From the NCBI GenBank assembly GCA_008632985.1, contig QPGO01000048.1, positions 372,001-436,000 of the forward strand: DNA of 64,000 nucleotides, in the 5' to 3' direction. The position numbers were made by a program, and so were the translations under genes. Under the pieces are notes generated by a model that ran no database searches, was not told where the DNA came from, and saw nothing but the letters and a program-made list of their open reading frames with translations. Positions 1 through 64,000 of this stretch are shown piece after piece. Numbering within the stretch: the stretch's first letter is position 1; each line of letters begins with the position of its first letter. This stretch comes from Psammoneis japonica (lineage: Eukaryota).

Positions 1-1900
1 AGTTGCAAACATCCATGAACATGAGCGGTGCCGCGGGCTTGGCATTTGATCCAAAACCAAGTCCAGCTTGTTTTCATCCCATTCTTTCCAAAGAAGCTCT
101 TTGTCATCAAATTGACCCGTTCTTGAAAGAAGGCGTCAACAATGTGAGGGTCATCTAAGACAGCCTTGCGACAACAGGCGGCTTTCTCTTCTTCTGAAAA
201 CTCTTCACAGCCAGAGTTGCAAATCAACAAGGCGCGAAGGTCCGCCCAGTGGTTGTCGGTGGCTGAAAAAGCAAACCATGATGCAGGCATTCCGCACTGG
301 TCTGTCAGAGCCTCGAGCTCCTTCTTCTTCTTGTAGAAATGCGAATCGCTGCCTGGGATGTTTGCGTTGAACTTTTGCATGTTGGAAACAAGTTCTTTGA
401 AGCGCGGCCCATTCTCTTGCACTGCATGCTTCAGCTCTTCCTCGGTGAGCTGTGCGTCTTCTGGGCACTTTCGCAGGTGTGCTTTCTTTTGATCCTGGTG
501 ACGGTGCCGAGTGGCAGCATTCTCGGCCCAATGCATGCACCGATTGTGGCATGCAAACGGACACACCCACTCTCCCTCCTTGTCATCAAAATGGGCATGC
601 TGCAGCAAGTGCTTGTTTGCCTCCGCCATGGCAACATTGATGCGGCGATCGTCACACGTGACATCCCCGTTGCCGTGCGGGAAGAGAGCAGGAAAGGCTG
701 GGCTTTGAAGCCAAGGAAAGGTGCAGTCATTGATGGGCTGGCCGTTGTTTTCAATCTCTTGGACGACGGAAGCAGGATCAAATCGATCGTGGAGAGTGCT
801 AGAAATTTCGGCGCGCTGCTGACCTGGATGAGGGCCAGATGGCAGACACCCAGATGCGACATCCTCACCCTCCTGTCCGCTTGCCCCGCCTTGTTCTGGA
901 CCACTTGCAGCAGCATCTTGGTCTTCACTTGCATTGCCTGCTGGCTCACTCTCATCTGCAATTGATGACATAGAATCCGCAACTGATCCATCCTGTGGGA
1001 GCAACAAAAGATTGTCCAGGTTGATGTCGATGTCACAACAGCCTGGATGATTTTCCTTCAGCCAGACAAGCCATTCTGCAACATTGTCGCGGCGAACCTG
1101 AAAGTCTTTGCATCCATTTGGTGTCCTTTGGTTTGGCTTTCGAAGGACAAAAACTGGCAAGTCGGAAACCTTGAGTGGAAGGCTCGCAATGACTTCGTTC
1201 ACATCCTTTTCAAGATTCACGACGGATCCTTTGCACCCGACTTGCCCGGACTGAAGGCAACAGCACTTCATGACAGTGTGAGCACAAGCAATGAGCATCT
1301 CTTCAACCTCAGATGGCTCGGGCAGGTGTGCAGGACGTCCCTTGGTGCAGACATCCATGTCATTTGCTGCAGAGAAACAACTCAAGCCATGCTCCTTGAC
1401 ATCCTTGGAACAAGCAAGGCACTGCTGCGGGTCGGACTCATTCATGTTCAAGATGAACCAGTGCTTCTTGCAAGTGGCACACCACATCATTTCTGTCTTT
1501 GAAATTCCGTCCACAAATTCATCTTGACAAGCTTTCATCTGTGGACCAGTCAAACAAGAGTGAGAACGATTGAAGAGGAAAGTGACGACAATCAACATCG
1601 TGTCTCTTGCATCGGAGTGGTCTTCTAGATTGACACCTGGATGCTGGCCGTCCCTGCAAGCTTCAAAACATTCAACAAGAGAAGAGGGTGGAACTGGAGG
1701 GTCATCAGAAGAGGACGAAGTAGATGACGATGACGAGGAGGAAGACAACGACAAGGACGAGGAAGGGTCATTGTCCATCGATTGCCTTTTTCGTCTGTTT
1801 GCTTGTTTCATTGCTTGGCGGTTTTGCAGCCTTGCTTCTGCCATTGACATTCCTTTGAAAAATCTGGCTTCTGCATTTGATTGGCGTTGTCGAGCCCTTG
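1..1900 (-). mobile_element. Helitron RepHel gene, N-terminal part (CxxC motifs, DUF6570-like region, start of HUH Rep domain); TpA-mutated, runs off the window edge
   Basis: Manual minus-strand translation gives WCATCKKHWF...CLACSK...FSAANDMD...VEEMLIACAHTVMKCCCLQSGQVGCKGSVVNLEKDV...VRRDNVAEWLVWLKENHPGCCDIDI, then PAFPALFPHGNGD, and at 1-60 KCQARGTAHVHG (ExQxRGxxHxH HUH motif). The upper boundary is approximate. Confidence 0.85.
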
Positions 1901-1984
1901 CCATTTCTTGCCATTCTTGAGTCGACAGGTGATCTCGTGCTCGTGCTTGAGATTGCTCCTTCCTTCCATTCGCAACTCTGTGAT

Positions 1985-4900
1985 TGTTGGTGGAGGAATC
2001 AATGGCAGCTGGTAGATCTGGATGAGCAAGAACAGACAAAGTAGAGCCATGAGTAAAAAAATTCGACAAAGTAGAGCCAACAAAGTGGGAACACTTGCGA
2101 CTCGAAGTGCGTTGTCGTTTCGCATCTCTGTCAGAAGAATCATCAACAGCGCTGGTCACTCGTCGAGTTCTGTGTGACAAAACTCAGGATTGGTGATGTT
2201 TGAAACCTCCGAATCTTGCGTTGACGAAATCTCAATGTGATCGACTGGAAGAGAAAACTCGGGATGTTTGGTGCGACTCTGGAAAGCATCCTCTCGGTTG
2301 CGCTTCCTGACGTCTTTTACGGCTCGATCCTCCGATCGGCGTTCAGCATGTCTCTTTTGGTCGCACTCTCTTTTCCGCTGTGTAGAGGTTGAAAACGAAG
2401 TGGGCGTTCCAAACACTGCATCCTGAGATCCATGAGAATGGTGCGCGTGCGGTGATCCAAAAGAAACGTGGGGCGGCATGCAACGAGGAGCAGGAGGCGG
2501 ACGAAAGTGAGGAGCCGACATCCAATGATCACAGGGAGGAGACAAAAAAGCTTGAGCCGGAGCATGCTGGTGTCCAAAATTGGGCATGCCTGGCGGCATC
2601 ATGAAAGCATCGCAGGGGCGACAGTTCCTCACATCGAGAGAGCCATGAACGACAGGAGGAGAAAAAACAACACCATTTCGAATGCACTTGTTCCACTCAT
2701 CAATCAAAGAAGCTTGAGATTTGGTGGAATGGGTTGATGCAGGCGATGTAGGTTCTGGAGCTTCCGGCGGAACGTGGGGTCCGGCGGAAAAGAATGCCTT
2801 CTCAACAAGCTCTTGCTCCTTTGGATCCGTTGTCGCTTGCCCCACCAGACGACGAGTGGGCATGGGAAAGGAAGCAAAAGAAAAGAGTGGGATGAGTGTA
2901 GATGCAATGGTTGCAATCTTCATCGTGTCGAAAGCGATGTCGAGACGAGACGATGAGTTTTGTGTTTGGCGGGATTTTGTTTTCCGCGGGAAAAGTGAGT
3001 GGCGAGACCTCGTTTCAATCAAGAGCTCGCAGGCGCGGAAGTTAGGTGCGACTATACGTGGTTGAATATTTATTAAAATTTACGTAGAATCCTACTGAAA
3101 TCAAGTTGAGTTCTATTTTAGCGATAGTAGCTCTGTTTTGGTAATAGTAGATGTTTTACTATATCGATTCTGTAGATATTTTGAGAAGCGTTTCGGGGCG
3201 ACCCTGTTCGGACCGTTAAATGGAATTTTTTTTATCCAGATTCCACAGTTCTTTCGGGGTGTTCGTAAGATTTTTGAAATGGTATATGTATATATTAGAG
3301 GCGTATGCAAATTTAATGATATGTAATACCTTCAGAAACAGATATAAATAAATCTTTCATGTAGACCACGTAGATTGTGTACCGGCCGAAAATCCACCGC
3401 ATGTCAATTCACTCAGTAGTAATTCTACGTATATTCTACATACACCTCACACACGTACACACGCCTACACAGTCTAATAACCGCGCACACGTGCGCGAGA
3501 TTAATCTTAATAAAAATCATGTTTGTCTCACTTTGTCTCACGTTGTCTGCATGTGTCTTCCTTCGCTAACAATTGTATAAACGTATCGCACGATATATAG
3601 CATAAAATAGTTACTTAAGGGCCTTTGGCTATTTTGGCGACATTGATAGAAATGTCTCACTTTATGTGGCGATAAATGATTGTTTATGGGAGTCATTTAT
3701 TTTACCATACATATCGATGGAATGTATTTGATTGTCGTAAGATAATACAAAATGTCCTAGTTTTCCGTTTTGGCGACATTTTCGTTAGTGTTCCAGCTCG
3801 CTCAAAGCCTTACCGTGCGGACGTACCGGCACCGGCATTGTCAGTTCTCTACTCTACTCTGTGTCATAGCTTGAGGATGTAGTTCTAGCTTGACTACCTT
3901 GCTATCTAGCACTACACACAGTAGAGAGACGAGGGCCTGCTCTGCTGTGCAGCAGAGACCATGTCTGGCTAGCTAGAGAAGGTCTTGCACTCTAGAAATG
4001 GATGTGCAGTGCTGCTGAACTTTGCTTGCCATCACAAACGAAGAAGACAATGTGCATGAAAAAGGAAGCATTGAGTCGAGGTGTCACTGCTCTGCTTTCC
4101 AAAGAGAGCTGTCTGAAGTGCTGTTGATGTGTCGTGTTGTTGTGTGTGTTTTTGGCGAGCGAGCCGTTTTTGCCCCACAAAATTTCTCTCAGGTGCAGAC
4201 AGCGGGAAGCACCGGCGTGACCCACCTCATCGTTTTGTCGTTGGTGCACCTGAGTGTGCGAATGCGCGTGTGCGAACGACAACAGACGATTTATGCACCT
4301 CTGATCTTCAAGCAAGACCTCCAAAATAATCGTGTGTTCGTTGTTCGTGTGTCCAGGCCCGCCCGCGCGCTTTCAGCTTGATGAAAGGTCTGTCCACATC
4401 GTTTTTGAGTTTAACCCTTGGGGCCAACAGACGCAGCGCCTTGGAAAATAGAAGCATGCAAGAAAATGAAACTGCTTGATCTGTTCACGTGCTCTCCAGA
4501 GAGAGTGTAAAGAGAGTCCGAGTTCGTAGACAAGCAATGCCCTCCAGTTGATGTCATCCGCAGCTCTCTGATCCCCAAGGCAACGCAGCTGCACGCGATC
4601 TAGACCCGACATGCAAGAACCAAGAAGATGTTGGTGGAGGAATCAATGGCAGCTGGCAGATCTGGATGAGCAAGAACAGACAAAGTGGAGCCATGAGTAA
4701 AAAAATTCGACAAAGTAGAGCCAACAAAGTGGGAACACTTGTGACTCGAAGTGCATTGTCGTTTCGCATCTCTGTCAGAAGAATCATCAACAGCGCTGGT
4801 CACTCGTCGAGTTCTGTGACAAAACTTGGGATTGGTGATGTTTGAAACCTCCGAATCTTGCGTTGACGAAATCTCAATGTGATCGACTGGAAGAGAAAAC

Positions 4901-7280
4901 TCGGGATGTTTGGCGCGACTCTGGAAAGCATCGTCGCGGTTGCGCTTCCTGACGTCTTTTACGGCTCGATCCTCCGATCGGCGTTCAGCATGTCTCTTTC
5001 GGTCGCACTCTCTTTTCCGCTGTGTAGAGGTTGAAAACGAAGTGGGCGTTCCAAACACTGCATCCTGAGATCCATGAGAATGGCGCGCGTGCGGTGATCC
5101 AAAAGAAACGTGGGGCGGCGTGCAACGAGGAGCAGGAGGCGGACGAAAGTGAGGAGCCGACATCCAATGATCACAGGGAGGAGACAAAAAAGCTTGAGCC
5201 GGAGCATGCTGGTGTCCAAAATTGGGCATGCCCGGCAGCATCATGAAAGCATCGCAGGGGCGACAGTTCCTCACATCGAGAGAGCCATGAACGACAGGAG
5301 GAGAAAAAACAACACCATTTCGAATGCACTTGTTCCACTCATCAATCAAAGAAGCTTGAGATTTGGTGGAATGGGTCGATGCAGGCGATGCAGGTTCTGG
5401 AGCTTCCGGCGGAACGTGGGGTCCGGCGGAAAAGAATGCCTTCTCAACAAGCTCTTGCTCCTTTGGATCCGTTGTCGCTTGCCCCACCAGACGACGAGTG
5501 GGCATGGGAAAGGAAGCAAAAGAAAAGAGCAGGATGAGTGTAGATGCAATGGTTGCAATCTTCATCGTGTCGAAAGCGATGTCGAGATGAGACGATGAGT
5601 TTTGTGTTTGGCGGGATTTTGTTTTCTGCGGGAAAAGTGAGTGGCGAGACCTCGTTTCAATCAAGAGCTCGCAGGCGCGGAAGTTAGGTGCGACCATGCG
5701 TGGTTGAATGTTCATTAAAATTTACGCAGAATCCCACTGAAATCAAGTTGAGTTCCATTTTAGCGACAGCATCTCTGTTTTGGCAACAGCAGATGTTTTG
5801 CTGCATCGATTCTGTGGACATTTTGAGAAGCGTTTCGGGGCAACCCTGTTCGGACCGTTAAATGGAATTTTTTTATCCAGATTCCAGAGTTCTTTCGGGG
5901 TGTTCGTAAGATTTTTGAAATGGTGCATGCATGTGTTAGAGGCGCGCGCAAATTTAATGATGTGTGATGTCATCAGAAACAAACACAAACAAATCTTTCA
6001 TGTGGACCACGTGGATTGTGCACCGGCCGAAAATCCACCACATGTCAATTCACTCAGTGGCAATTCTACGTACATTCTACATGCACCTCACACACATGCA
6101 CACGCCCACACAGTCCAACAACCGCACACACGTGCGCAAGATCAATCTCAACAAAAATCATGTTTGTCTCACTTTGTCTCACGTTGTCTGCATGTGTCTT
6201 CCTTCGCTGACAACCACACAAATGTGTCGCATGACACACAGCATAAAATGGTCACTTGAGGGCCTTTGGCCATTTTGGCGACATTGACAGAAATGTCTCA
6301 CTTCATGTGGCGACAAATGATTGTTCATGGGAGTCATTTGTTTTGCCACACATGTCGATGGAATGCATTTGATTGTCGCAAGATGACACAAAATGTCCCA
6401 GTTTTCCGTTTTGGCAACATTTTCGTCAGTGTTCCAGCTCGCTCAAAGCCTTGCCGTGCGGACGTGCCGGCATTGTCAGTTCTCCACTCTGCTCTGTGTC
6501 ATGGCTTGAGGATGCAGCTCTGGCTTGACTGCCTTGCTGTCCAGTGCCACACACAGCAGAGAGACGAGGGCCTGCTCTGCTGTGCAGCAGAGACCATGTC
6601 TGGCTAGCTAGAGAAGGTCTTACACTCTAGAAATGGATGTGCAGTGCTGCTGAACTTTGCTTGCCATCACAAACGAAGAAGACAATGTGCATGAAAAAGG
6701 AAGCATTGAGTCGAGGTGTCACTGCTCTGCTTTCCAAAGAGAGCTGTCTGAAGTGCTGTTGATGTGTCGTGTTGTTGTGTGTGTTTTTGGCGAGCGAGCC
6801 GTTTTTCGCCCCACAAAATTTCTCTCAGGTACAGCACATCGTGACAGCGGGAAGTGCCGGCGTGATCCACCTCATCGTTTTGTCGTTCGTGCGCGCTGAG
6901 TGTGCGAATGCGCGTGTGCGAACGACAACAGACGATTTATGCACCTCTGATCGATCTTCAAGCAAGACCTCCAAAATAATCGTGTGTTCGTTGTTCGTGT
7001 GTCCAGGCCCGCCCGCGCGCTTTCAGCTTGATGAAAGGTCTGTCCACATCGTTTTTGAGTTTAACCCTTGGGGCCAACAGACGCAGCGCCTTGGAAAATA
7101 GAAGTATGCAAGAAAATGAAACTACTTGATCTATTCACGTGCTCTCTAGAGAGAGTATAAAGAGAGTCCGAGTTCGTAGATAAGCAATACCCTCTAGTTA
7201 ATGTCATCCGTAGCTCTCTGATCCCCAAGGCAACGCAGCTGCACGCGATCTAGACCCGATATGTAAGAACCAAGAAGATG
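1985..7280. repeat. ~2.64-kb tandem duplication (copy 1 1985-4630, copy 2 4629-7280)
   Basis: tgttggtggaggaatcaatggcagctgg begins at 1985 and 4629; ...gaaccaagaagatg ends at 4630 and 7280. ORFs 2156-3022 and 4600-5715 are near-identical. Confidence 0.95.
2156..3022 (-). other. Pro/Ser/His-rich ORF upstream of Helitron RepHel (probably element-derived; second copy at 4600-5715)
   Basis: 288-aa ORF with no Tyr, same strand as RepHel, duplicated; no recognisable domain. Confidence 0.4.
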
Positions 7281-8899
7281 ATGGCGCCAGAGACTTTTGC
7301 TCAAAAGGATATCGTGCAATTGCCATAAAACAGCGGCGCGCAATGCTTCGCGTCCGCCCTTCAATCCGCCAACTTCGTGCATACTACTAGAACCTCCCAG
7401 CCGTCGAGGATGAACTAGATACACCTGACCAGGAACTACAAGGCGCGCTTCTTCGCCTTCACTACCGTGAGCGTGTGTCTTTAAACTTGATACCTAGGAT
7501 CCGCAAACCGTCGTATGTGAGTGCAACAAGACATTGCAAAGTGCTGACACCAAAAAGTTAGACGGAAGGTGGAACTTTCTACTCACCGTGAGCGACACTG
7601 TGTCTGTCATCCGACTCAATTGTCTTCCGAGAAAGCCTCCCTTCATTGACTTTTGTGTCCGCTCACATAACCGATCCAAACTGTCAGCAGTTGTGCGCGT
7701 AACATCATCATCCCCATAGATAATTGACGTGATAAAGGCTGCCTTAACGTTCGCCGAAAGGCAAGGCGGTGCGCCTAATACGACAGCCGAAGAACGCCCT
7801 TGTCCACACCCTTCCAGCTGAAACGAAGTCACGTTGGCGGATGAACTCTCCTGCGCTTCTTTTTTTCGGATACACACTCTCCAGCGTCTGAGCTTGTTCG
7901 GCGCCTTTTCCGCTTTCGGCGTTTGGAGGAACCATCCTCCGATGGAAGGGGTAAGCTCCCATCCAAAATCGTAGCAGCCAAGCTTGCAATCCCTCCAGCC
8001 ACCGACTGCCCAACAAAATGAATGGCGATTTCAGAGCTGTTGTATCTTTGTAGTGTCGGCTGTAGAACATCTTTTAGAAGCCTTCCAGCAGCTCTGTAGA
8101 GACTCCCCTGGACTGAAACAACCTCGTTTGCAACCAGACCTGTGTGTAAGCCCACAAGCAAAGGCTGCTCATCCAATAATGCTAGTGTGCGAGGTAAGTC
8201 GTGCACCAACGAGTCCCCGACGACGACCAATAGCCGGCCATGATGTGAAGAACGCTCCAACGGAGCTGCTTCCACCAGATCTTCAATGCCGCCGTGGTCG
8301 AGACCTGCGCCGCCTTGATACAAAGGCTCATACAAGACAAGAACCGTCAGATTCATCCCTTCCGTTACCAATGTGGTTGCATTAACTACTATTTCCCTGC
8401 CAACAAGAGTTCCGTTAGCGTTCTCCTTCATCTCCTCCACGAGAATCGAAGGCTACTCAAGAAGCTCGCAGAGTTCTGCCGCAAAAAGAGCATCGGCAGC
8501 ACTCCCAGCACGAGTTGCGCTTCGACGGGCTCTCCCAGAGACGGAAGCATCAAAAGATTCTCCGCTACTACGATGGGTTCGTTGGTATGCCTCGTGAGCC
8601 GCGCCATCGAACTTTTTCAGAGTGCCCTGAGCTGAAGAAAGTGCTGCAAGCGCTCGCTCCACTTCAGCCGTATCCGGTTGCCTCTCATCTTCTGGGAAGG
8701 AAAGACGCTTCTTAATGACGCCTGCCAATAGTTCATAAACATTACTACTGTTTTTCGAACCTTTCTGTCGCTTGCGTTTTGACGGGGAAGCACCGCCGCG
8801 GCAGATCTCTAACGCTTTCAAGGGCAACAGATGGGCACTTGCGTTGTTGTAAGAAAAAGAAAGAGTCGCAACCAGCAAATAGAAAAGCAAACGGTTCAT
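7194..8899 (-). pseudogene. Secreted class-3 lipase-like alpha/beta hydrolase, apparently disrupted
   Basis: Signal peptide MNRLLFYLLVATLSFSYNNASA (ATG 8899); nucleophile-elbow-like HFVGQSVAGGIASLAA; IIYGDDDVTR; C-terminal WRHHLLGSYI; GT-AG intron 7586-7494. In-frame TAG at 8455-8453 and a frameshift near the T-run at ~7860. Confidence 0.65.
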
Positions 8900-9120: not shown

Positions 9121-9367
9121 CTCCTCGTACCCAAGTTTAGATGGAGACGGACTGACTCGAATCAACCCCCCGCGATGACCATGACTTCTCGCCTGATCCA
9201 TTTCGGAAGCTTGGGACTTCCGGTTCAAGATGACCCAGTCCAGTCTTCTGACTGTGACCGGTCAAACTTCGGTTTTCTCTTTTCCCACTTTTCCAGCTTG
9301 ATTGGAACAGGAACCCTGATCAACGTAACTGGATCACACAAGCCCGGAAAAGCATTGTTCTTTTTCA
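9121..9367 (+). repeat. Ngaro repeat A1
   Basis: ctcctcgtacccaagtttagatggagac...gcattgttctttttca, 247 bp, matches 17590-17836. Confidence 0.95.
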
Positions 9368-9849
9368 GTCTCTCTCATCATGTCGGATTTCTTCGCCTCA
9401 GGTGTCTCGGATGATGCGTTCGTTGATTTGGCTTGTCAACTGGAGTTGGATGTTGTCTCGCCTTTCTTGTCGAGCTCTCCGGCGGCTCCCTCTCCTCAGG
9501 CTCGCCCTGCTGGGGCTGCGCATCAGGGGGGGAGTTGCGAGGGCTCAAATCCTCGGGGCATGAGCGATGATGTTTCGGGGGGTTGTGGTCATCCCCAATC
9601 GGACATTGACAGAGCAGAGTTGGGGGAAGTCATTTCCCGCCATCCAGGAACTCACGTTTTGGAAGGAGACGCATCCCACCTGGTTCAGAGGGAAACCCGC
9701 TCGTCTCGGGTTGGTTTCTTTGGGCGGGATTTAGCGGGTGATGTCGGAGGCACGGTCGAGTCGGAGGGGGGAGGTGCATCCTCTTCGTCCTTGCATGTGC
9801 GCCTCATCATCGAATCACCTGGCTGGAGACTGTTGGAGCACCTCGGTGC

Positions 9850-11842: not shown

Positions 11843-12240
11843 AGCCCATGGGGAGCGGAGGAACCGTGGGAGGGTCCGGTCTCGGTTGACAGGCCTGACA
11901 ATCTAAGGCATGTCATGCGAGGCCGCAAAGCCTTCTCATTTCAGGGAGCATGCTCAGTTCTTTCCTCCAGTCCCCCAATTTGGCTGTTGTCCCTTAGACC
12001 AAAAGAATGGCCCACACTGTGCTTCTATTCCGACAACTCAGCCTTTTCCCATTGGAGTCCCCTCTTGGTGGATGTGTTCCAAAGCCAGCCAGGAGCTTCC
12101 TTGGCCCAGGTCGGTTGGTCGAGCGTGGGGCATCTTGCCACCCGGGTTGATCTCGCATTTGTGTCAGGTCCACCGTCATTCCTAGAACCCGCGGCGCATG
12201 TCATCCAACCCACGCCCTTCATCATGATCCCCATGGGCAC

Positions 12241-49610: not shown

Positions 49611-49615
<5 letters not shown>

Positions 49616-53174: not shown

Positions 53175-53434
53175 TTAGACGATCAAGCAATATGTTCGGT
53201 GACGAAGGAACTCAAGGAAAGGGAGCTTGACAAAGAAGTGGCGTTGTCGACGAGGCGGTTGCGAGAGCCGCGGTGGGTTGTCTATGGTGTTCAGCAACCG
53301 CGAAGAGCGACGAAAATGGTTTCTGGTTTCTGCTGAGTCGTCGATCGACCGTCGTCCGTGTCATGTGAGGGTTTTTTGATGGCGCGTCTTGCGGCTTGGA
53401 TTCTTGATTCTGTTTTTTGTGTTTTTTGTCGACG

Positions 53435-54701: not shown

Positions 54702-54797
54702 AATCATTGATAATTTGTGAAAGCAGGACCAAAGTTTCTTGGTTTTTTGTTACGAACTCTTTTCAATAATAATACAAGTCTTAGATACATTTCCTCC

Positions 54798-56062
54798 CTA
54801 CAACAACCTGCCGCCAACAGGAATAACTGAATCAAACAACACCCCCGAAGTGCCACAAACCCTGGCTGCTGAAGGTGTAACATGATTGCCATTCTCATCC
54901 TCGCTACAGGCATCTCCGTCTAGAGGCGTCACATCGATACCACAGTCAGATTCCGGATCGTCAAGGGTGCTTGGGTCAACGCGTTTGAGGCGGATGTAGC
55001 CTCCTTCGCCCCAGGTAGGCCTCCAGGAATTGCGTATGAGCCAGAAGTCTTCCTTCGTCTCTTCATCAGTGCCATATCCAATAAGAACAACAGCGTGGTT
55101 CAAGTCAAATGCGGCGGGCGACTTGCTCTTGTCTGAGAACACCCCTTTCTCGTACGCAAACCAGTTGCTAGCGGCAACAGAAACGACTAGCGGTCCTTGT
55201 TTCGCCACGGCATTCATGAGCGCGGCATAATCGTTGGCGGGAAGAACCGAATAACCTTCAATGGTTGCCACGGCCCCGCGAATGCCAGGAGGATCGCCCC
55301 CCTGACCGCGTAGCCCATTCTTTGTATCCGGCAAGACAGTGCAGTTCGCTACGGCTCCGTAGTAGCTGGTGTAACCCATCTGATACTCTTGCAACATACC
55401 ATTCCCGCCGCCACGAAATCAAAGGCAAGCTCAGCGGTGGCCCCAGCGCAGCCACCGCCTCCTCCACAATGTCGCGGATTACGAACACAAGAAACGAGTT
55501 CCTGAGTGCTCAAATCAAACAGAGTCCCAGTCTGAATTGCAATGTGTGATTCAAGAACAGCCGTCGAAGAAGCCGCCCAACATGACCCACACCCCCCCTG
55601 ATCCACTACAGGCGAAACGACGCCTTTGTCACGCCAATCTACAGATGGTGGCAGGCTTGACACATCATCAATCTCAAAAGGAAGGACCATCTCGTGACTA
55701 CCGAGCTTGCGATGGATAGAGGATGAGGAAGAGTCCCCAAATATGCTCCCTCGTTTGCTAAGGGATTTGTCGTATCCCAAAGGCAACTCGTCGGGCGCCA
55801 GATCAGTAAGGTGATTGATACCAAGGACATGGCCGGAAGTTCGTGCACGGTTATGCTCTAGAATCTGTTGGAGGTTGCGCCCAAAAATATTCTGCCGCTT
55901 TTCGTATTCTTCTGCTGACATGTAAGACTTTCCAAAGTCCACGATATACTTATCGAATGTGTAAGACTCGTCCAGCTCGTCCCAGGAAGGAGCGACAGCA
56001 TGGCAAGGAACCAGAATCAGCAGAAGAGACGAGGCAACGGCTCGGAAATGGTTGCCGATCAT
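54798..56062 (-). CDS. Papain-family (C1A) cysteine protease with I29 propeptide; one apparent frameshift at ~55405
   Basis: Signal peptide, ERFNIN-like propeptide, SVDWR, QGGCGSCWA (catalytic Cys), LNHAVVLIGYG (His), FWLIRNSW (Asn). Confidence 0.93.
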
Positions 56063-56653
56063 GTTTGTATTTGTCAGTCCTTTGTCAGTGGCTTCGAGAC
56101 GAGATGACAGTAAAGCACTGACTGTGTGCTACCGGTACTGTAGAGATTGTTTGCCACGTGATAGATAAAATAGGAGGGAAAGTTGGGGAAAGCAAGAGGA
56201 AGTAAACAATCTGGGGGGCGTCTTTGGAAGTGATGAGATCGACGAAGGCGGTCTGATCGCCAGTGCGTTTGGGGGTATTTCCAGTGCAATTTGTACGCAC
56301 AAGAAAACACGTAGGATCTGTCCAGCGTTCCCAAATACCCCAATCGCACTGCACTGATTGACAGACTGTTTTAGTACAAATTCTACGTAACTTTCTTCGA
56401 CAGTCTCACTTCCAAAGACGTCCCCCAAATCGGTGCAAACGCTTTCTGCTGTTCGCGGAAATCGCGCACTCGCGTCGAGCTCCGACAAACTGAATCCTTG
56501 GTGGTCGCGCCACTTTCACTGGTGACCCAGTTTTAGCAGAATTTCAGCAGGCTCTGGCATGTTCCCGCAGCCTTGTGCAGGTCCCAGTGTGTTGCGTCAA
56601 GAGCCTCGCTCGATTCATTTTTCTCATGTTTTTCGATTTTATTTCGCATCACA

Positions 56654-58475
56654 ATGACAGGAAAAACAAAGAAACAGGCGGGGACCAAGAAGGCGGTGAA
56701 CTCTGCAGCTGGAACACCAAAACGCAAATCGAGCAAAGGAAAGAACAAGGCCAAAAAGAACGTGCTGCTGCCGGCAACGGGCTCGAAAGAATTCCGTGTC
56801 TGTCGTTGTTTCGACAACAGCAGCAGCCGTTGGGTTCGACATGAGAGACGCGCTCCAGGTCTGGGTGGGACCTCGCACTGCTGAACTGTGACATCGACAG
56901 TTTTTTGAGTCTCGTCGCATGTCGCGCACGTAGATTTCTACGTGATTTTTTCGACATTTTGTGTCATTTTACGGTGCACTTGTTGAGTGATCCGTCCAAC
57001 AACTTTTGACATTTTTTGTTACAGCGCGATTCTACAATGTCTTAAGAATCGTGTGGGGCAGGCGAAGTTGCAAAAACGTCGAGTGGCAAGAGGCACAATT
57101 GTGCACAAACTTGGCCGTTTATTTGATGTTGAAGACAAATGTGTCCATTGATTAAATTCTCGCACTGCGGAGCTCGCACGTAGAATTCTGCGGGCCCAAT
57201 GTCACAAGGAGTCCCACCTTGGGCTGGAACGCGTCGAGAGTGCCATCGTGACCACTCCCGGCAAGAAGCCCAAACGTGAAATTTGCTTGCGAGTCCATTG
57301 ACTCAGTCAAGAAGCAGGATGTCAGGATGAAGAAACTGCTGGAGCCGAGCTTGATGAAAGACTTGTGGACACCGCAGAGTTCCTGCATCATGTTCCTCAC
57401 AACATCAACTCGGACTCGTGGCGCGTCACTTGCCAAGCCAATTTTGAGTGCTTTGTCCTCTTGCTTCATCCTGAGGAGCAAACATGCACAGTTTCTAAGC
57501 CATGTGAGCAACCCAGCCCAAGACCAACTTGAAAAAATCCTTGCTCCTGCAAATCTGCTGGTGTGCAGCTGCATCAGGCACATGTCAAGCAAGAGCACGA
57601 TTCATGGAGTGGACGGCCGCAAAAACAAGTGCAACTCCATGCGAGGAACCCTTGGAGCAATGTCTGGCACTCTCATTCAATTTGGCCATGGTCCATTCAA
57701 AAGGAGTGCTGACACCAAGAAGCTCATGAAAGACTTGGAAGGACAGTCAGCCCCAGCACAGGCGCGGGTCATTGAGTTTGAGAAAGACCTGCCAAGGCTG
57801 TTTGATGCTTGTTTTGGGACCAAGATCTTGAGGAACTGTGACACTCATGTGCAGGTTTGGGCTCGCTTTTTGTTGGCGACAGGTTTGATTGCACACTTGT
57901 CAGATGCAACTCAGTTCTGTCCCCACTTTGAGAACTTGGAGCTGCCTGCAGATTCGAGGGACTGTCTCAACGACGGGCTCCCACGGTCTGTCATGGTGGG
58001 ATTCACGGATTGGAAATCTCGACCTGCGTGGTCCAAGCTTCAGCATCCAGTGTGCAAGGTTCGGCTCTGTGCCAACACCAAGGATTTGAGGTTTTGCCCC
58101 ATCCATTGGTTGATGAAACATTGGGAGCTTCATGGTGGAAAGTTGATGGGTCCGATTGTGAGTGAGGTCAGGTCTTCAACATTCATGAAACAGTTGAAGA
58201 AGTTGTTCAAGGCTGCTGGTCTTGGTGTGTGCTCCAGTCACTCAATCAGAAGAGCTGCAGCACAGTGGGCTCGTTGCTGTGGTGCCAACATTGTCACAAT
58301 TTGAAATGTCGGCAGGTGGCACGGTTTGGAAAATCCATTTCCATGCATGTCCGAAGGTGAGAGGATTGGGCGAGAGAAGCACCTTCGCAACAACACTCGT
58401 GACCCAATTTGGGACACGTGGGCATTCGACACCAGCGCCGCCATCCACACCATGGACAAAGGTGCTTCTAAATGA
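56654..58475 (+). pseudogene. Crypton-like tyrosine recombinase relic, interrupted by a MITE
   Basis: GLIAHLSD (Arg I position), DWKSR, FCPIHWL, SSHSIRRAAAQWA (HxxR), NVGRW, then PCMSEG with TGC at 58344-58346 at the expected Tyr. No RT nearby. Confidence 0.7.
56847..57235. mobile_element. MITE copy 1 (~389 bp), imperfect ~25-bp TIRs, 4-bp TSD GAGA
   Basis: gaga|gacgcgctccaggtctgggtgggac ... gtcccaccttgggctggaacgcgtc|gaga. Confidence 0.9.
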
Positions 58476-58582
58476 CGTTCTAGCAGCAGTTGAAAATTGG
58501 CAAAAACAAAACACTCTGTTGCCAAGTGTGACTCTGTTGCTGGGTGCACAACTCCATTGCCAGGCACACATGCTCATTTTGC

Positions 58583-59750
58583 TCACTTTCTGCTTTCTTG
58601 CGGTCCACAAGAAAAGAGCACCACGCACCACAAATCTTTGATTGCATCACACCATGAAGTGCTGGGCTTGTGGGTGGTGCCAAGTTCCCTTAGATCCGCA
58701 AGGTTCTGTTTTAGAGTTGCCGGGTCATTGTCTTTTGGCAGAGTGTGAACTGCACAGCATGCCGCGCACCACGAATTGAATTTTGAATTTTGGCTCCCTT
58801 TCTGTTCTGCCTTTTTCCTGCTTTTGTCATCCCACAGTCTGCAAGGAGAACACACACTGTTGTCGTCTTTGTCCACAAACTTGTCCTCAAACGCCTGCAC
58901 AAGTGCCGTCACATGCGTCTCGTTGTTGCGTTTGTACAAATTCGGAATGGTTTTTTTCGGCACGTCCAAGACAATGGGGGCATTCACATTCATTGGTTCT
59001 TGACATGCCACTGCATTTTTGGGGTGAGGTGTGGACTCATTGGAGGCACAGTGATTGACCTCACGCTCCACAAAGCCACGTCACAAAGCAATGTCTTTTG
59101 CACTTTTTTCACACACAGAAAACATTGGCGTGGCAGGATCACTCGGATCTTCAAAAAAAGAGCAGTCACCCACTCCAAAAAGTGGCACTGTCTTGAGAGT
59201 GACACTTCATTCCTCAGGTTGCATTGGAGTTGCTCCAGTGTGTGCAGCACCGACTGGCTTGACGGCAGCAAAATTGCAGGTGGCCTGGAGTTCCTCAGCT
59301 CATCGTGTGAAAGTGTCAGGGTTGAATTTTTTCCCACTGACATGCCACGATCGGTTCTGCTGAAACTGCTCCATCATGTCCTGCACAGATGCAAGAGGGG
59401 CACATCAACGCTTGGGGGAATGGATGCGCCGTCCTTCAATGTCATCCATGCCGGTGCCGGAACCATCCACACCACGCTTCTCCATGTTCTGCTGCAATTT
59501 TGTCCTGCCACAATCTCTTTGCTTTTGCACTTCCTTTCTGTGTGATGGGTTGCCACAAGGGCAGTGTTTGCCACCTTTCTCTTGCCAACATCTGGTCCGG
59601 CGTGTCGAGAAACCCCTCGCCATTGCGTTCAGAGCAGCTCGCGGCCTTGACCTTGTGTTTTTGTGTTGATTGGTGGGTTGCATGTGGTTGATTGTGCAGC
59701 CAGCCACGCAGAGCTCCAGCACTCGTGAGCTGTTGATTGAGCCTCCCAAT
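58583..59750 (-). pseudogene. Degenerate ORF convergent with the Crypton-like recombinase (possible accessory gene)
   Basis: Protein-like fragments such as ALVQAFEDKFVDKDDNSVCSPCRLWDDKSRK within the TA-depleted block; no domain recognised. Confidence 0.3.
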
Positions 59751-59895
59751 CAATTGATTCAGGCCTGAACGCGCACTTTTCCAGCAACAGGGCCCCCTCC
59801 CACGTGCTGTGCTGTGCGGCAGTCAACAAGCAACAAGTGAATGAAGTGCGACAACTTGCATGTGCGCACAAACACCAAGCTAAAAACATCGCACC

Positions 59896-61450
59896 ATGGC
59901 ACAAGAGAAACAGAAAACCATTGCCACCAAGAACAATGGCTCACCACGCAAAGGTGCCAAACAGAAACAAGCTGAGAATCAAAATGCAAAAACAACAGAA
60001 CAAATTCCTCAAGAATCAGACTCTAAAGACACGGGTGAATGGAAGCTTGTCAAATCAAAAAACACCAGTGCAAAATCTTTGCAAAACTCCCTCACCAGCG
60101 GAAAAGACTCAAAAACGATGAATGTCAACATGCTGAATGCACGCAGCAGGAAACAGAGAGAACTTCAAGCCAAAAATGAAGTGACTCCCTCCGACACAAC
60201 AATCACAGAGAAGGATCACATGACTGATGAACCAATGGAAGTCAATCAATCAGATGAACTTCAAGAAGAAGCACCACAGAATCTTGTCAGTGAGAATCAC
60301 TCATGTTCATCGGACAAAGAGGAAAACAAGAAATCAGCAGAAAAAACAAAATCTCAGGATTCAAAACAATCATCTGAGGAAGAAGACAACGACTCGCAAC
60401 AAGATGAGGAAAGCTGTGAGAGACGGCGCGCGATGCGCTGCAACGCATTTCCAGCTGCACCTCCATCTGAGAAACCTCTCAAAGAGACTGCTGCCATTTT
60501 CAAAAAAGGCTTCACTGTCATTCAAGAGGTGCTTGGGGAAAACGTCCACATCGGCACTTGGGACCCAGATCTGGAAGAGACTTTTGGAGAGCTGTCGACG
60601 CGTTCCAGGTCTAGGTGGGACCTCGCACTGCTGAACTGTGACATCGACAGTTTTTTGAATTGCGTCGCATGTCGCGCACGTGCATTTCTACACGATTTTG
60701 GCGAAATTTTGCATCATCACAGTGCAATTGTCAGGCGATCCATTCAACAACTTTTAACATTTTTTTCTTCTGCGCCATTCTCGAGTGTTCTAAGAATGGC
60801 GCAGGGCATGCGCATTGTCCAGAACTTTGAGCACAAACACAGACACATGCACTGCAAACTTGGCCGTTCATTTTATGTCAAAGATGAACACATCCATTAA
60901 CCCGAGTACAAACTGCAGAGCTCGCACGTAGAATTCTGCGGGGCAAATGTCACAAAAAGTCCCACCCAGGACTGGAACCCGTCTGTCATCTCCAGATGAC
61001 ACTCCTGAAGGTGAAGCCCAAGACAGAGAAGAACTCAGTGCCTTCCTGGGAGCAGACTGTCTCAATCCAAGGGCTGATTCAGAACACATGATGTGCTGCC
61101 AACTCCGCCTGATTCAAGTCGGGGAAGACAGCGACCTGCGTGTCATGGCTGAATTCAGCAAAAAACTTTGAGGAATGTTTGATGACATCAAGAAGGACAA
61201 AGTCTCCATTGGTTGGCCATGTCAAAGTGCAAAGACTGTGACCGAAGCTGCCCCATTCAACTGTGTGCGCAGCACACTTGGAGTCAAGGACTGCAACAGC
61301 ATCGGACTGCAACGGAGAGCCATTGACGTGTTCCAGTCCCAGGTGATGCACAAAATGACAATCGATTTTGAATGTGGTTTGTGTGTCTTCAAGTGCACAA
61401 AGCATTTTCACATGAAACACTCAGACGGATTGACTTTTGCAGGCTTCTAG
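59896..61450 (+). pseudogene. Retroelement ORF1-like relic split by MITE copy 2
   Basis: Low-complexity N-terminus (GEWKLVKSK, acidic tract). Removing the MITE and one TSD joins ...EETFGELS to SPDDTPEGEAQDREELSAFLG in frame. Family assignment is a guess. Confidence 0.45.
60597..60983. mobile_element. MITE copy 2 (~387 bp), imperfect TIRs, 4-bp TSD TGTC
   Basis: tgtc|gacgcgttccaggtctaggtgggac ... gtcccacccaggactggaacccgtc|tgtc; homologous along its length to 56847-57235. Confidence 0.9.
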
Positions 61451-61619
61451 AGTGTGAACATTTAAACAGTTTTTTGGGGGCATTCAAGTCCTCATGGGAC
61501 ATGTGTCACAAACTTCCTCAGCAGGCTCAGTGCTGATTGTGCATCAGCAGATTTACACTGAGATTTCTTTGTGGGTAGAAAACCCACCAAGCAGCATCGT
61601 AGAAAGATGTGTTCAGGTG

Positions 61620-63253
61620 ACATGAGAACCGAGTGAGGCAAAATTTGAAATCCTCAACTTCTGTCTCATGCTCTGTGTCAGGAATTGGTGCAACACAAAG
61701 ACTGGGGAAATGTGCAAGCCGGGTTCCTTTGTGCAACACATCAAGCAGCTCTTTTCTGTCTTCAAATCTCATGGTGTCAAACACAAGTATGACGATCGCA
61801 TTTTTTGCAATGCAGGTGGATGTCGGTCGGCATTGGAACTCGATTGGGCCGAAAAATGACAACAAGATCCCGAGTTTGCGACTCAGAAGAACAAGGGTCA
61901 CGTCGACATCCATGCTGACAAAAAGATTGCCCTTGCCATTTCTGAAAAGCAGTTCAAACCCTTTGAATTGTGCTCCAACATGATCGCCGCCCCAGCATTC
62001 GTTCTTGGTCAATGTTTTGGTCTTCGCAGCAGTGACGCTCCTCTGTTGGTGCAACGTCACCTTTGGAACCTACAATCGAGGTCCGGACAAAGGGTTTCAG
62101 CACACCCAGGTCAAACCAGACGACAACAAGATGCACAAGGTGACTGTGAAAGCGCTTTCTGTTGCCAAGGCACTGCTCAAAGGTGTCAAAGTTTGCGAGA
62201 TGCCTGGCAACCCCTTGTGTCCCTTGAAACTGTTCAGAAAGTGTTGGGGATGGTGCCGCCCAGACCAAAAATGTTTCCTGCACCACTGCGCAAGAACAGG
62301 TGCAATGACTTGCCACACCAAGTGGCAGAGAAGAAACAAATGGGGAAAACTGCGGTTGGCAATCAAATGAAATGTGCAGCCGAGCTTTGTGGGCTTGAAA
62401 ATTGGGAAATGGTGACAAATCATTCAAGCTGAGTGCTCTTGATTGCAGCTTTGGTCTCTGTGAATCTCCACCCAAGAGAGATCGCCAACCGTGTCAGGCA
62501 CAAGTCTGCGGAAAGCCAGAATGTCTGCATGCACGAGCATGAGAAGGTTGAGCCATGTGCAGGACGCGATTCGTCCAGCGTCCGTCGCAGCTGCCTCTGC
62601 GGTTCAAGAAGTTGATGCTGCAATTCAAGGAGTTGATGCTGTGACAGTGACCTTTGCTGAGGGAGATTCCAGTGGTTCGTCTGCTCCTTCTGAAACAGAG
62701 CTGGCGAGTTTGTGCTCTCAGTTTGTGCTCTCGGTGTGATGCCTTGTCGGCTGACAAAAACAATCTTGAGTCCACTGTTCAGGAGCTCAAAGCCACTGTT
62801 GGCAATCTTGAGTCCGCCAATGCCATGTTGGTGTCAGAAAAAGACCACTTGGAAAGTGAAAAAGCTGTGCTCCAGGATGGTCTTCAGACAGCCAAACAGA
62901 AAATCGAGAAAATGCCTGCAGCTTCCGACTTTGGTTCAATGGATTTTGGTTCAATGGCGGATCATGTTGCTCGTCGTGACAACGCGCTTGAGTTGATGGA
63001 CACCAAGCATTGTGAAGCAAAGAAAGAGAAAATGCAGGTGCTCAACCAGAGCACACAACTCGAGTTGCAGCTTGGAACAATTCAAAGCCATGAGGATGAG
63101 ATCAACTGCCTCAAGGATTCTCTGGCACAGGCAGGTGCCTTGAATCAAAACCTGACCAACAACTTCAGTCAATCTCAGATGCGTGCAGCACAGCTTTCGG
63201 GACGGGTTCATGATTTGCAGGAGCGGAGGAACCGAGTGTGCACAATCATGTAG
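61620..63253 (+). pseudogene. Second Crypton-like tyrosine recombinase relic (DUF3504-like) with a downstream coiled-coil ORF
   Basis: CFGLRSSD (Arg I), NPLCPLKLF, VTNHSS* (HxxR with TGA at 62430), EIANRVRHKSAESQNVC (TGC 62526-62528 at the expected Tyr); heptad-rich ORF 62654-63253. Confidence 0.75.
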
Positions 63254-64000
63254 AGTGACTTTCTTTTAGACCAAATGGGGCAGTCTGTTGCAATCACAGT
63301 GAGCCAGCATTGCCAGACTCAATGCACTGCACTCAACACACTGTGCACTTGGCACGATCCTCCAAAAAGTGAGCTGCAGCACATCACTGCGCTCGCACCA
63401 GCCTCATCCAGAACAACCTCATGCACATGTTTGAATGCTCTCGCGTCATGCTTGTTCTGCACAAATTAAAAAGTTTCAATGTTGTCATTCGTTTCGTGAC
63501 ATCATCAGCCGTCATGGTGTGTGTGACACCATCATCTGTCTCGACCAATCAGCGTTCATGGAATCACATGATGATCCCGGCAAAGAACGTCTCAACCAAT
63601 CAACATTCAGGGAATCCAATCCCAGCATCGGAAATCACAGCCGGCGGCTGCACATGATTCTATGACAATTCTGCACTGAGACCCGGTGCGGGTCAGATTC
63701 CAGAAATCTGGAAAATGCCACCTCCGAGCGTCGACCCGGTGTGATTCCGTGGTTTTTTCGGCACAAAGCTCGGCGAAGTCATGCAAACACAGGGATCACA
63801 ACCCACGAATGTGACCGCGCTGCGGAACAAAGAACAGACACTGTCCAATGCAGCACCACCACCTGCCGCACAAAGTCAGGGCACCGCAGGGCGTGGCAAA
63901 CAACACGCAACAACAATGCATGCCGACAACAAAACAACCATCAGCACCACGTTCAAACAGTTGCTTCTTTAGAGACTCTTTACAGAGCTGTTGCCAAAAC

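Follow-up and report, generated by a model that had tools for sequence, protein, structure and literature searches.

What removed nearly every TA dinucleotide from long blocks of this diatom DNA, when the host genes between them have kept theirs? The window analysed here, a single stretch of 64 kb, has an observed/expected (o/e) TA ratio of 0.35 as a whole. Subwindows of 1 kb range from 0.00 to 0.24 within the blocks already named by the first-pass annotation, versus 0.40 to 1.08 in the host stretches, and a two-state segmentation draws almost exactly the same limits (Table 1). The host segments lie at 0.61–0.64. Together, the five depleted blocks hold 176 TA in 35,911 positions (35.9 of the 64 kb), compared with 1523 expected at the host frequency, a deficit with a binomial p of 0 to machine precision. 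The depletion is thus confirmed as a real property of the sequence.

Table 1. Features of the 64-kb window (positions counted from its first nucleotide).
Feature	Coordinates	Strand	Remarks
TA-depleted block 1	1–3030	-	TA o/e 0.08; Helitron Rep N-terminal ORF and start of tandem copy A
Helitron Rep N-terminal ORF	3–2183	-	Runs off window start; Pfam matches
Tandem copies A and B	A 1985–4634; B 4629–7284		93.8% identical
TA-normal segment inside tandem copy A	3031–3998	.	96 TA, o/e 1.10, GC 0.40; counterpart in copy B has lost TA
TA-depleted block 2	3999–6929	-	TA o/e 0.16; end of copy A and tandem copy B
Tyrosine-recombinase retroelement	9121–18294	+	Split direct repeats, RT/RNase H and recombinase ORFs
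TA-depleted block within retroelement	9142–18153		TA o/e 0.12
Split direct repeats	A1 9121–9367; B1 17141–17597; A2 17590–17836; B2 17854–18294		Repeat search
Retroelement ORFs	9742–11709; 13344–15284 (RT/RNase H); 16040–17026 (recombinase)	+	
Host gene stretch, internal control	18154–34403	.	TA o/e 0.64; Tyr 1.6–3.0%; Pfam
Largest block, TA- and CpG-depleted, mostly unclassified	34404–47747	.	TA o/e 0.05, CG 0.22, CA 1.84, TG 1.74
1.6-kb tandem duplication in largest block	38814–40387 / 40400–41996		
ORF with weak DDE-transposase lead	40973–41893		In largest block
144-bp tandem array in largest block	42755–43620		
Host gene stretch, internal control	47748–56400	.	TA o/e 0.61; Pfam
TA-depleted block running off window end	56401–64000 (segmentation limit 63999)	.	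TA o/e 0.08
Repeat pair in last block	56847–57235 / 60597–60983		
Tyrosine-recombinase-like ORF (lead)	57252–58304		350 aa, 0 Tyr; Atlas feature matches

The missing dinucleotides can be accounted for. In the blocks, the deficit of TA (and of CpG) is balanced by a gain of CA and TG, and the four YpR dinucleotides add up to much the same total as in the host (0.22–0.25 versus 0.236). For the block at 34–48 kb, losses of 0.039 in TA and 0.042 in CG match a gain of 0.085 in CA+TG. The CpG depletion of this block is an observation in its own right which had received little emphasis before. The block at 56–64 kb has a CG o/e of 0.63, while CpG is almost intact (0.72–0.91) in blocks that nonetheless lost TA. 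At the protein level, tyrosine makes up 0–0.48% of residues in 11 block ORFs versus 1.6–3.3% in 8 host ORFs; the RT/RNase H ORF (646 aa from stop to stop) retains a single Tyr. The first-pass annotation had described blocks nearly free of TA between host genes with normal TA and Tyr, had singled out this ORF and the Tyr-free ORF of the last block as Tyr-poor, and had listed six peptide strings (TDHF, RPHAG, PSPC, LCGFGDASG, WCKG and NHPGCCDI). The o/e values and Tyr counts agree with this description and all six strings are present in the window.

Two of the affected elements can be named. The ORF at the window start matches Helitron_like_N (E = 3.7e-20) and DUF6570 (E = 4.3e-21), and a relative (P0121) carries the same domains plus PIF1; in the window copy, the helicase would be encoded beyond the window start. 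On these domain matches, the element in 1–7 kb is established as a Helitron. The element at 9–18 kb encodes an RT/RNase H ORF followed by a recombinase ORF, within the split A1...B1-A2-B2 repeat layout which characterizes the DIRS/PAT/Ngaro kind. There are 244 homologs of its RT; some are named from diatoms, and one has a precomputed PF00078 match. In 57 of 80 metagenome loci, the RT is followed by an ORF homologous to the recombinase ORF, and the top matches to the predicted fold of a relative are all tyrosine recombinases (XerH, lambda Int, Cre), although with marginal scores (E of 1.2e-3 and up, TM 0.3–0.5, model pLDDT 65). A Pfam search of the retroelement ORFs of the window returned no family, with RVT_1 in P0001 below the cut-off. 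The element is established as a tyrosine-recombinase retroelement of the DIRS/PAT/Ngaro kind.

The remaining depleted DNA is less well defined. None of the 44 ORFs searched with Pfam in the largest block scored above a family cut-off. Its DDE-like ORF is a lead only, as is the recombinase-like ORF of the last block, which has Atlas feature matches to integrase/XerD-like and DUF3504 clusters (scores 0.95–0.97). The earlier statement that all transposon classes are hit therefore stands for the Helitron and the tyrosine-recombinase retroelement and is otherwise too wide, the rest being leads or, like most of the block at 34–48 kb, unclassified. Its term "repeat-targeted" is likewise only partly supported. 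The control stretches contain, by Pfam, genes for an MFS transporter, MATE, DUF1995, a NUMOD3 protein, a YqeH-type GTPase, an LHC protein and an FtsJ methyltransferase (18154–34403), and for a phage-type (mitochondrial-type) RNA polymerase and a papain-family protease (47748–56400).

Repeated sequences reveal how specific the change is. Tandem copies A and B differ by 141 substitutions, 97 of which exchange TA with CA or TG. The 110 aligned TA of copy A read 28 TA, 50 CA, 31 TG and 1 CG in copy B. Taken from A to B, T>C and A>G make up 99 of the 141, reverse transitions 35 and transversions 7; outside both TA and CG contexts there are just 8 changes of the A>G or T>C type. Across repeat pairs, TA sites changed 77–102 times faster than other sites in three pairs and 86 times faster in a fourth; relative to CpG the ratio is 7–20 in three pairs and 2.7 in the fourth. 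As TA is saturated, the relative rate of about 80–100-fold is a lower bound. TA-derived mismatches account for shares of 0.73 and 0.74 in two pairs and of 0.57 and 0.32 in the other two.

Strand and flanking context are equally informative. The outcome at a given site, CA or TG, is fixed but differs between copies, and the two outcomes are interspersed at random along the sequence (39 runs versus 39.2 expected), which indicates that the strand is chosen independently at each site. Among the surviving TA, ATAT is absent (host share 8.7%) and ATAC/GTAT occurs once (host share 14.7%), whereas TTAA and CTAA/TTAG are about 3-fold enriched. The preferred flanks are roughly 5′-A-T-A*-Y, with T or C favored over G or A as the 3′ neighbor, and the poorest contexts are 5′-T-T-A* and T-A*-A.

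The direction of the change cannot be read from the A/B pair alone, and the possibility that these elements are natively poor in TA, through selection or foreign origin, has to be considered. The TA-normal segment in copy A would then be the product of a RIP-like CpA->TpA process. This is the least probable of all the readings weighed here. The TA content of the segment is ordinary rather than elevated, and its CA and TG are ordinary too. Conserved tyrosines point the same way: across the Helitron, RT and recombinase ORFs none of 17 conserved Tyr columns is kept (10 Cys, 5 His, 2 Phe), compared with 415 of 505 other conserved residues. By protein, the RT kept 0 of 6 (3 Cys, 2 His, 1 Phe; 80 homologs) versus 216 of 260 other columns, the Helitron 0 of 7 (4 Cys, 2 His, 1 Phe; 150 homologs) versus 130 of 157, and the recombinase 0 of 4 (3 Cys, 1 His; 57 loci) versus 69 of 88. 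For RT and Helitron, Fisher's test of Tyr against other columns gives p = 2.7e-10. A recombinase Tyr conserved at 98%, in ...MRQHY..., is now encoded as TGT. When the conservation threshold is set at 50% throughout, a single Tyr of 23 is kept versus 479 of 621 other residues, and 6 of the 23 columns depart from the predicted outcome (4 Phe, 1 Thr, 1 kept). Replacements of the Thr>Ala type (A1->G1) follow a codon ending in T in 9 of 16 cases, versus 36 of 151 for conserved G-first codons.

Relatives of the retroelement complete this picture. Tyr amounts to 1.35–4.19% in 120 RT relatives versus 0.15% in the window ORF, and TA o/e is normal (0.51–0.80) in all 80 metagenome or environmental relatives, none of which shows the depletion; it is thus not a general diatom trait. 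These comparisons support a change from TA to CA or TG, the direction that the first-pass annotation had proposed together with an enrichment of substitutions at TpA, borne out by the A/B counts.

When the change occurred can be approached through the split repeats. In models of such elements B1 equals B2 and A1 equals A2 at insertion, which is assumed here. B1 and B2 now differ at 38 sites, including 9 CA<->TG doublets and 10 single TA<->CA/TG exchanges. A CA<->TG doublet needs TA or CG as its ancestor, a further argument against native TA poverty. Both copies retain 23 CpG, and only 5 have gone from one of the two; CpG decay would accordingly yield about 0.1 doublet, and we attribute the doublets to changes made on DNA after insertion. 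The duplicates of the largest block differ by 34 such doublets. At the retroelement, the switch in TA density falls at 9138/9326 on one side and at 18004/18160 on the other, so that about 150 bp at most separate the edges of depletion from the element ends. The earlier view of a change confined to TpA and to blocks of mobile elements is supported, and the block edges are sharp.

Could the signature have arisen elsewhere than in resident DNA? A modified base at TpA could have been misread, in repeats which escaped polishing. The confinement of depletion to repeats, the hardest parts to polish, and the single 1-kb clean segment inside a depleted element would fit such an artefact. However, each site has a fixed outcome which varies between copies, and k-mer contigs from run X1 (depth 51–57) are identical to the depleted retroelement over 489, 427 and 685 nt, 1.6 kb in all. 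Such identity needs accurate reads, although this run is possibly the assembly's own source. The same signature has also been recorded de novo, with Illumina reads, in another alga (10.64898/2026.01.13.699255), and we regard an artefact as very unlikely. Hyperediting of RNA is more improbable still: an ADAR-like enzyme would convert A to I on dsRNA, and reverse transcription would fix the change in DNA. One affected element is indeed a retroelement, and ADAR favors a 5′ U, as quoted in the same preprint. Yet the Helitron, a DNA transposon, is equally depleted, adjoining tandem copies differ in place, the terminal repeats of the retroelement diverged after insertion, and non-coding parts and both strands are equally affected. 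Editing before integration, restricted to elements with an RNA intermediate, is ruled against by the Helitron and by the post-insertion divergence.

The most serious competitor concerns the chemistry, and we consider it improbable but well ahead of the foregoing ones. A TET/JBP-type dioxygenase would oxidize T at TpA in silenced elements to 5hmU or 5fU, which would mispair with G at replication and give T->C; on one strand this is indistinguishable from A->G on the opposite strand. The normal pairing of 5hmU with A counts against this route, and we know of no 5hmU in diatoms. T>C changes outside TA are few (4 of 141 in the A/B pair), no TC->CC signal stood out as a major class, and mutagenic mispairing of 5hmU to near-saturation is not documented. 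In its favor, the accessible part of a study on dinoflagellates describes 5hmU from TET/JBP homologues on transposable elements and cites older work in which T was replaced preferentially in TA and TC (PMC11572971).

We favor a DNA-level process in this diatom which would convert TpA to CpA or TpG, an A:T->G:C change striking the A on either strand. It would act in place within integrated mobile elements, nearly to saturation, and stop within about 150 bp of their ends, sparing the adjoining host genes. This process and its direction are very probable. It would serve as a genome defence, killing mobile-element genes by turning catalytic and structural Tyr into Cys or His, and would be of the same kind as that caught de novo in mutation-accumulation lines of Bigelowiella natans. 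As for the chemistry, an enzyme may deaminate adenine at TpA in silenced chromatin, leaving hypoxanthine to be replicated; to this we assign somewhat less than even odds. The most plausible candidate enzyme would be a TadA/ADAT2-type deaminase, whose natural tRNA substrate also presents U33-A34. ADAR and fungal TAD2/3 mRNA editing have 3′ preferences other than T or C, which leaves the TpA requirement to carry the deaminase proposal by itself. To the reading as a whole (process, defence role and adenine deamination of the B. natans kind) we give a probability of about 0.6. More tentatively, diatoms (Stramenopiles) and chlorarachniophytes (Rhizaria) might share an old DNA-editing defence whose enzyme reads silenced chromatin rather than repetition, deaminates adenine at 5′-(A)TA(Y) on either strand of resident dsDNA, and erases all Tyr codons and TAA/TAG stops of marked elements within a short evolutionary time. 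If true, such a defence would mirror fungal RIP and provide the first natural eukaryotic editor of adenine in double-stranded DNA.

To our knowledge, mutational genome defence has been described mainly in fungi (RIP, C->T) and, as APOBEC/AID, in vertebrates, and a TpA-specific A:T->G:C process in one prior report, a 2026 preprint on one rhizarian alga. The window adds the signature in a diatom, a member of a major and genetically tractable group, its saturation in two or more unrelated kinds of transposon, and action on DNA after insertion. It also constrains the enzyme (about 100 times background, independent strands, ATAY flanks, edges within about 150 bp); these are handles for finding it, and it could be a natural DNA adenine editor. 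For annotation there is a warning: affected elements lose Tyr and the TAA and TAG stops, which creates long spurious ORFs, and they escape Pfam models.

How does this compare with known systems? Like ascomycete RIP, the process would be a mutational defence which makes transitions at one dinucleotide in mobile elements and leaves a sharp regional scar. RIP changes C to T, mostly as CpA->TpA, so that TA and AT content go up, whereas here TA is destroyed and GC rises; fungal-type RIP is ruled out on this loss and on the direction. Deamination of 5-methylcytosine likewise feeds CA and TG, and it co-occurs in the blocks at 34–48 and 56–64 kb, but it cannot remove TA, whose loss outpaced that of CpG 7–20-fold in three of the four repeat pairs. 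CpG decay as the cause is excluded by the blocks with near-intact CpG. The first-pass annotation had set both aside, RIP because it typically creates TA and CpG decay because it cannot remove TA. ADAR and ADAT2-ADAT3 (TadA family) share the A->G outcome and the 5′ U/T requirement, tRNA A34 being always preceded by U33. They act on RNA, whereas the targets here are resident DNA of DNA transposons and retroelements, and the 3′ neighbor preferred by ADAR is G rather than T or C. Dinoflagellate 5hmU is similarly associated with transposable elements, favors T of TA (and TC) and occurs in a SAR lineage; it is an epigenetic mark for which the accessible part of the article reports no TA loss (PMC11572971), in contrast to the mutation seen here.

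The closest match is the preprint of Mettrop et al. (2026; 10.64898/2026.01.13.699255), which overtakes the earlier remark that no characterized system has this signature. Its available text describes how NCLDV and virophage DNA integrated in B. natans is hypermutated de novo from TpA to TpG or CpA. In two viral regions, 230 of 231 de novo mutations were A->G or T->C, all of these on TpA according to the authors, in Illumina-sequenced lines. They arose at about 1000 times background per generation and were switched on in some lines only; TpA-depleted CDS were enriched in RT and DDE domains (10.64898/2026.01.13.699255). A:T->G:C transitions, the TpA target, confinement to mobile regions and CpA+TpG enrichment are all found in our window. 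As far as the available text goes, both cases show TpA->TpG/CpA change only, regionally, in foreign or mobile DNA within a normal host genome, at a rate orders of magnitude above background, with TpA depletion and CpA+TpG gain as the long-term trace and TE-type domains (RT, DDE) among the targets. They differ in host, a chlorarachniophyte (Rhizaria) versus a diatom (Stramenopiles), and in target, viral insertions versus a Helitron and a tyrosine-recombinase retroelement. The long-term trace in B. natans is weak (10.64898/2026.01.13.699255), with an o/e of 0.45 for the NCLDV region, and near-saturating here (0.05–0.16). De novo events were observed there, whereas the process here is known from resident sequence. 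Flank preference, strand independence and sharp element edges are described here and are absent from the available preprint text. Judged by its signature, the window is a second lineage of the B. natans type, saturating on transposons.

The TA dinucleotide is under-represented over the whole window (observed/expected ratio, o/e, 0.35), with CA (1.37) and TG (1.34) in excess in the same dinucleotide profile. A two-state segmentation assigns the deficit to five blocks whose TA o/e ranges from 0.05 to 0.16, against 0.61-0.64 in the host stretches used as internal control. The TA-poor blocks described in the first-pass annotation are thereby recovered, and all six of its peptide strings were found. 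Summed over the five blocks, 176 TA remain where host dinucleotide frequency predicts ~1523. The four pyrimidine-purine dinucleotides taken together are constant (0.22-0.25 in the blocks, 0.236 in the host), since the gain of CA+TG balances the loss of TA plus, in two blocks, a loss of CG. In the block at 34-48 kb, for example, TA changes by -0.039, CG by -0.042 and CA+TG by +0.085. At the retroelement, depletion sets in ~20 bp or less from the left end and stops ~135 bp inside the right end. These limits, together with the normal TA content of host stretches, bear out the proposed restriction to mobile elements.

Features of the window and TA content where calculated
Feature	Position (strand)	TA o/e	Description
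Depleted block	1-3030	0.08	
Island	3031-3998	1.10	968 bp
Depleted block	3999-6929	0.16	
Depleted block	9142-18153	0.12	
Depleted block	34404-47747	0.05	
Depleted block	56401-63999	0.08	
Helitron ORF	3-2183 (-)		Helitron_like_N + DUF6570 (Pfam)
Tandem copies A and B	1985-4634 and 4629-7284		after Helitron ORF
Retroelement	9121-18294		
Split direct repeats A1, B1, A2, B2	9121-9367, 17141-17597, 17590-17836, 17854-18294		
RT/RNase H ORF	13344-15284		in retroelement
Recombinase ORF	16040-17026		in retroelement
1.6-kb tandem pair	38814-40387 and 40400-41996		CpG-decayed
ORF with DDE lead	40973-41893		
Tandem array	42755-43620		144-bp unit x5.9, 91% matches, zero TA
Recombinase-like ORF	57252-58304		lead
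Host ORF	26032-26793 (-)		Lys/Glu-rich, NUMOD3 motif
Light-harvesting protein	30964-31899 (-)		host gene

The coding content of the blocks is altered accordingly. Tyrosine makes up 0-0.48% of block ORFs versus 1.6-3.3% of host ORFs. Counted over both strands, TAA (136) and TAG (118) each reach about a tenth of the frequency of TGA (1647), and their near absence fills the blocks with long stop-free frames. There are 86 such frames above cut-offs of 110 aa (blocks at 34-48 and 56-64 kb) or 150 aa (block at 9-18 kb), with long ones on both strands. None of the 86, of which 44 lie in the block at 34-48 kb, matched a Pfam family above the curated cut-off. Gene callers will over-predict ‘hypothetical proteins’ in these blocks.

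The RT/RNase H ORF has 244 homologs, the named ones originating from the diatoms Fragilaria, Cylindrotheca and Cyclotella. Of 80 related loci in metagenomes, 57 conserve the ORF downstream of it. For the fold predicted from an intact relative of this recombinase, the top matches are all tyrosine recombinases (XerH, lambda Int, Cre), albeit at marginal scores. Pfam gave no match for RT and recombinase relatives that are intact, a profile search of PDB sequences based on the recombinase alignment returned only chance JAK2 rows, and Rfam gave no match in the whole window. The repeats are ordered A1...B1-A2-B2, which we take to be the split-direct-repeat layout of PAT/Ngaro-type tyrosine-recombinase retroelements. 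The block at 34-48 kb is mostly unclassified; its ORF at 40973-41893 has a single homolog (protein P0391, 59% identity) and a DDE_Tnp_1 hit below cut-off, a weak lead to a DDE transposase. The recombinase-like ORF of the block at 56-64 kb is likewise a lead, and BLASTP between the two recombinase-like ORFs of the window gave no significant match. The suggestion that all transposon classes are affected thus holds for the Helitron and the tyrosine-recombinase retroelement, while DDE elements are represented by a lead only. The proposed targeting of repeats as such stays a hypothesis.

CpG is almost gone from the block at 34404-47747 as well (o/e 0.22 overall, with several 1-kb windows at 0.02-0.14) and CA and TG o/e reach 1.8-2.2, while the other blocks retain most CpG. 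This block is either much older or far more cytosine-methylated than the others.

The host genes between the blocks are ordinary. The light-harvesting protein is ~80% identical to diatom proteins, which identifies the host as a diatom. Its signal peptide ends in ...SSAMAFAP, presumably the ASAFAP-type plastid-targeting motif of algae with red-type complex plastids, and this agrees with the diatom assignment. The NUMOD3 motif of the Lys/Glu-rich host ORF (E=2.2e-8) is a DNA-binding motif of homing-endonuclease-type proteins.

Judged from three independent lines of sequence evidence, the direction of change is from TA to CA/TG, as had been proposed. The first line is provided by conserved tyrosine columns, in which no tyrosine is left in any of three ORFs (table below; Fisher p = 2.7e-10 for RT and Helitron against other columns).

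Conserved alignment columns in three ORFs of the depleted blocks
ORF	Compared with	Tyr kept	Now	Other conserved columns kept
RT	80 homologs	0/6	3 Cys, 2 His, 1 Phe	216/260
Helitron	150 homologs	0/7	4 Cys, 2 His, 1 Phe	130/157
Recombinase	57 loci	0/4	3 Cys, 1 His	69/88

The lost recombinase tyrosines include the 98%-conserved one of ...MRQHY..., which by its position we take to be probably the catalytic residue. With a uniform 50% threshold, the three ORFs keep 1 of 23 tyrosines (12 Cys, 5 His, 4 Phe, 1 Thr) and 479 of 621 other residues; the Phe and Thr outcomes lie off the prediction and are ordinary replacements. Across codon boundaries, a codon ending in T precedes 9/16 of the Thr>Ala-type replacements, the figure for conserved G-first codons being 36/151.

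The relatives are normal in composition. Tyrosine accounts for 1.35-4.19% of residues in 120 RT homologs and falls below 1% in only 1 of 150 Helitron homologs. TA o/e is 0.51-0.80 in all 80 metagenome loci versus 0.12 in the retroelement; these loci are the best 80 of 232 confirmed relatives and were located by two conserved peptide patterns, so that heavily mutated copies may be missed.

The third line comes from the 38 sites at which B1 and B2 differ: 18 of them pair up as nine adjacent CA<->TG doublets, and another 10 are single TA<->CA/TG changes. Such a doublet requires an ancestral TA or CG that was altered on one strand in one copy and on the opposite strand in the other. With 23 CpG preserved in both repeats and only 5 missing from one of them, CpG decay would be expected to produce ~0.1 doublet.

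Two of 150 Helitron-like public representatives also carry Cys or His at conserved tyrosine columns: P0122 at 6 of 7, and P0264, which has no tyrosine in 167 aa, with Cys at 3 of 3 covered columns. On this sequence pattern, the same process may have reached other Helitron families, in Psammoneis japonica or another organism.

The specificity for TpA is confirmed by copies A and B, as 97 of their 141 substitutions are TA<->CA/TG. The 110 TA of copy A align in copy B to 28 TA, 50 CA, 31 TG and 1 CG, and only 8 changes of A>G or T>C fall outside both TA and CG contexts. Differences within B1/B2, A1/A2 and A/B show that resident DNA was changed after insertion or duplication. Under the assumption that repeat pairs were identical at origin, the rate of change at TA in three repeat pairs exceeds that of other sites by a factor of 77-102 and that of CpG by a factor of 7-20; in the CpG-decayed 1.6-kb tandem pair the factors are 86 and 2.7, respectively. 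As TA is near saturation, these ratios are lower bounds.

Flanking nucleotides also influence the outcome. Among the 176 surviving TA, ATAT is absent and ATAC/GTAT occurs once (host shares 8.7% and 14.7%), while TTAA and CTAA/TTAG are ~3-fold enriched. In the A/B pair, a 5′ T precedes 11 of 28 retained sites versus 12 of 81 converted ones, and retained sites are also richer in 3′ A or G. These patterns favour a preference on the edited strand for 5′-A-T-A*-Y, with 5′-T-T-A* and T-A*-A disfavoured, provided that the survivor analysis presupposes the elements' ancestral composition correctly.

The 1-kb AT-rich segment at 3031-3998 is TA-normal inside a depleted element, and its tandem twin at ~5680-6640 lost 81 of 110 TA. 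A possible reading is a repeat that entered before the duplication and was spared, being younger or expressed. Many contigs of sequencing run X1 map here with differing continuations (loose ends at 3224, 3409, 3501 and 4007). Over 3336-4002, summed contig depth is 1548, where bins of host sequence reach ~100-118. Together with the loose ends this hints at a multi-copy element, although depth is not a copy number.

Parts of the window occur in three sequencing runs of one sample, none of them listed as RNA. X1 contigs match the depleted retroelement over 489, 427 and 685 nt with 0 differences; this argues for accurate reads, with X1 possibly the very source of the assembly and thus not independent of it. 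Further X1 contigs, which derive from related copies, depart from the window sequence by adjacent C>T/A>G pairs at 152/153, 172/173, 175/176 and 2287/2288, the same doublet pattern as in the window repeats. Contig depth, which is not a copy number, is 51-57 on the exact retroelement matches versus 100-113 on host genes and could reflect an insertion on one haplotype only. Contigs of a second run, X2 (recorded as ‘DNA?’), are transcript-like and skip two GT..AG segments, 7491-7585 and 19597-19684. Such contigs cover 3336-4002; in depleted-block bins X2 contigs occur at 6671-7337 only, and the blank elsewhere carries no evidential weight. The third run, X3, yielded no contig.

Which process could produce this pattern? 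Fungal RIP acts in the opposite direction. CpG decay is distinct from the TA changes and co-occurs with them in two blocks. RNA editing of the ADAR type fits poorly and is very unlikely, because resident DNA was changed and the Helitron is affected as well. Strand-coordinated clusters, as in APOBEC-type kataegis, are rejected by the random interspersion of CA and TG outcomes (39 runs versus 39.2 expected), which means that each site and strand was hit independently. A consistent strand asymmetry is absent (50 CA : 31 TG in one pair; Cys:His 10:5 at conserved tyrosine columns). A live rival to adenine deamination is thymine-side chemistry, namely TET/JBP oxidation at TA, as with 5hmU on dinoflagellate transposons (PMC11572971).

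The earlier statement that no characterised system carries this signature is outdated. According to a 2026 preprint, mutation-accumulation lines of Bigelowiella natans carried 302 nuclear point mutations, of which 231 were located within one NCLDV and one virophage insertion. Of these 231, A->G or T->C changes made up 230, all on TpA per the authors, and the rate was ~1000x background in some lines only (10.64898/2026.01.13.699255). RT and DDE domains were enriched in TpA-depleted CDS, and an ADAT2 homologue is proposed as the enzyme (10.64898/2026.01.13.699255). The signature has thus already been described, with its mechanism unsolved. Besides this preprint, none of the papers listed in literature searches reports TpA-specific hypermutation, in diatoms or elsewhere. 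As far as these sources go, our finding is a further case of a very recently described phenomenon. It differs from that of B. natans by its diatom host, its transposon targets and a much deeper depletion, and to the known signature it adds post-insertion evidence, relative rates, strand independence, a flank preference and the sharpness of the edges.
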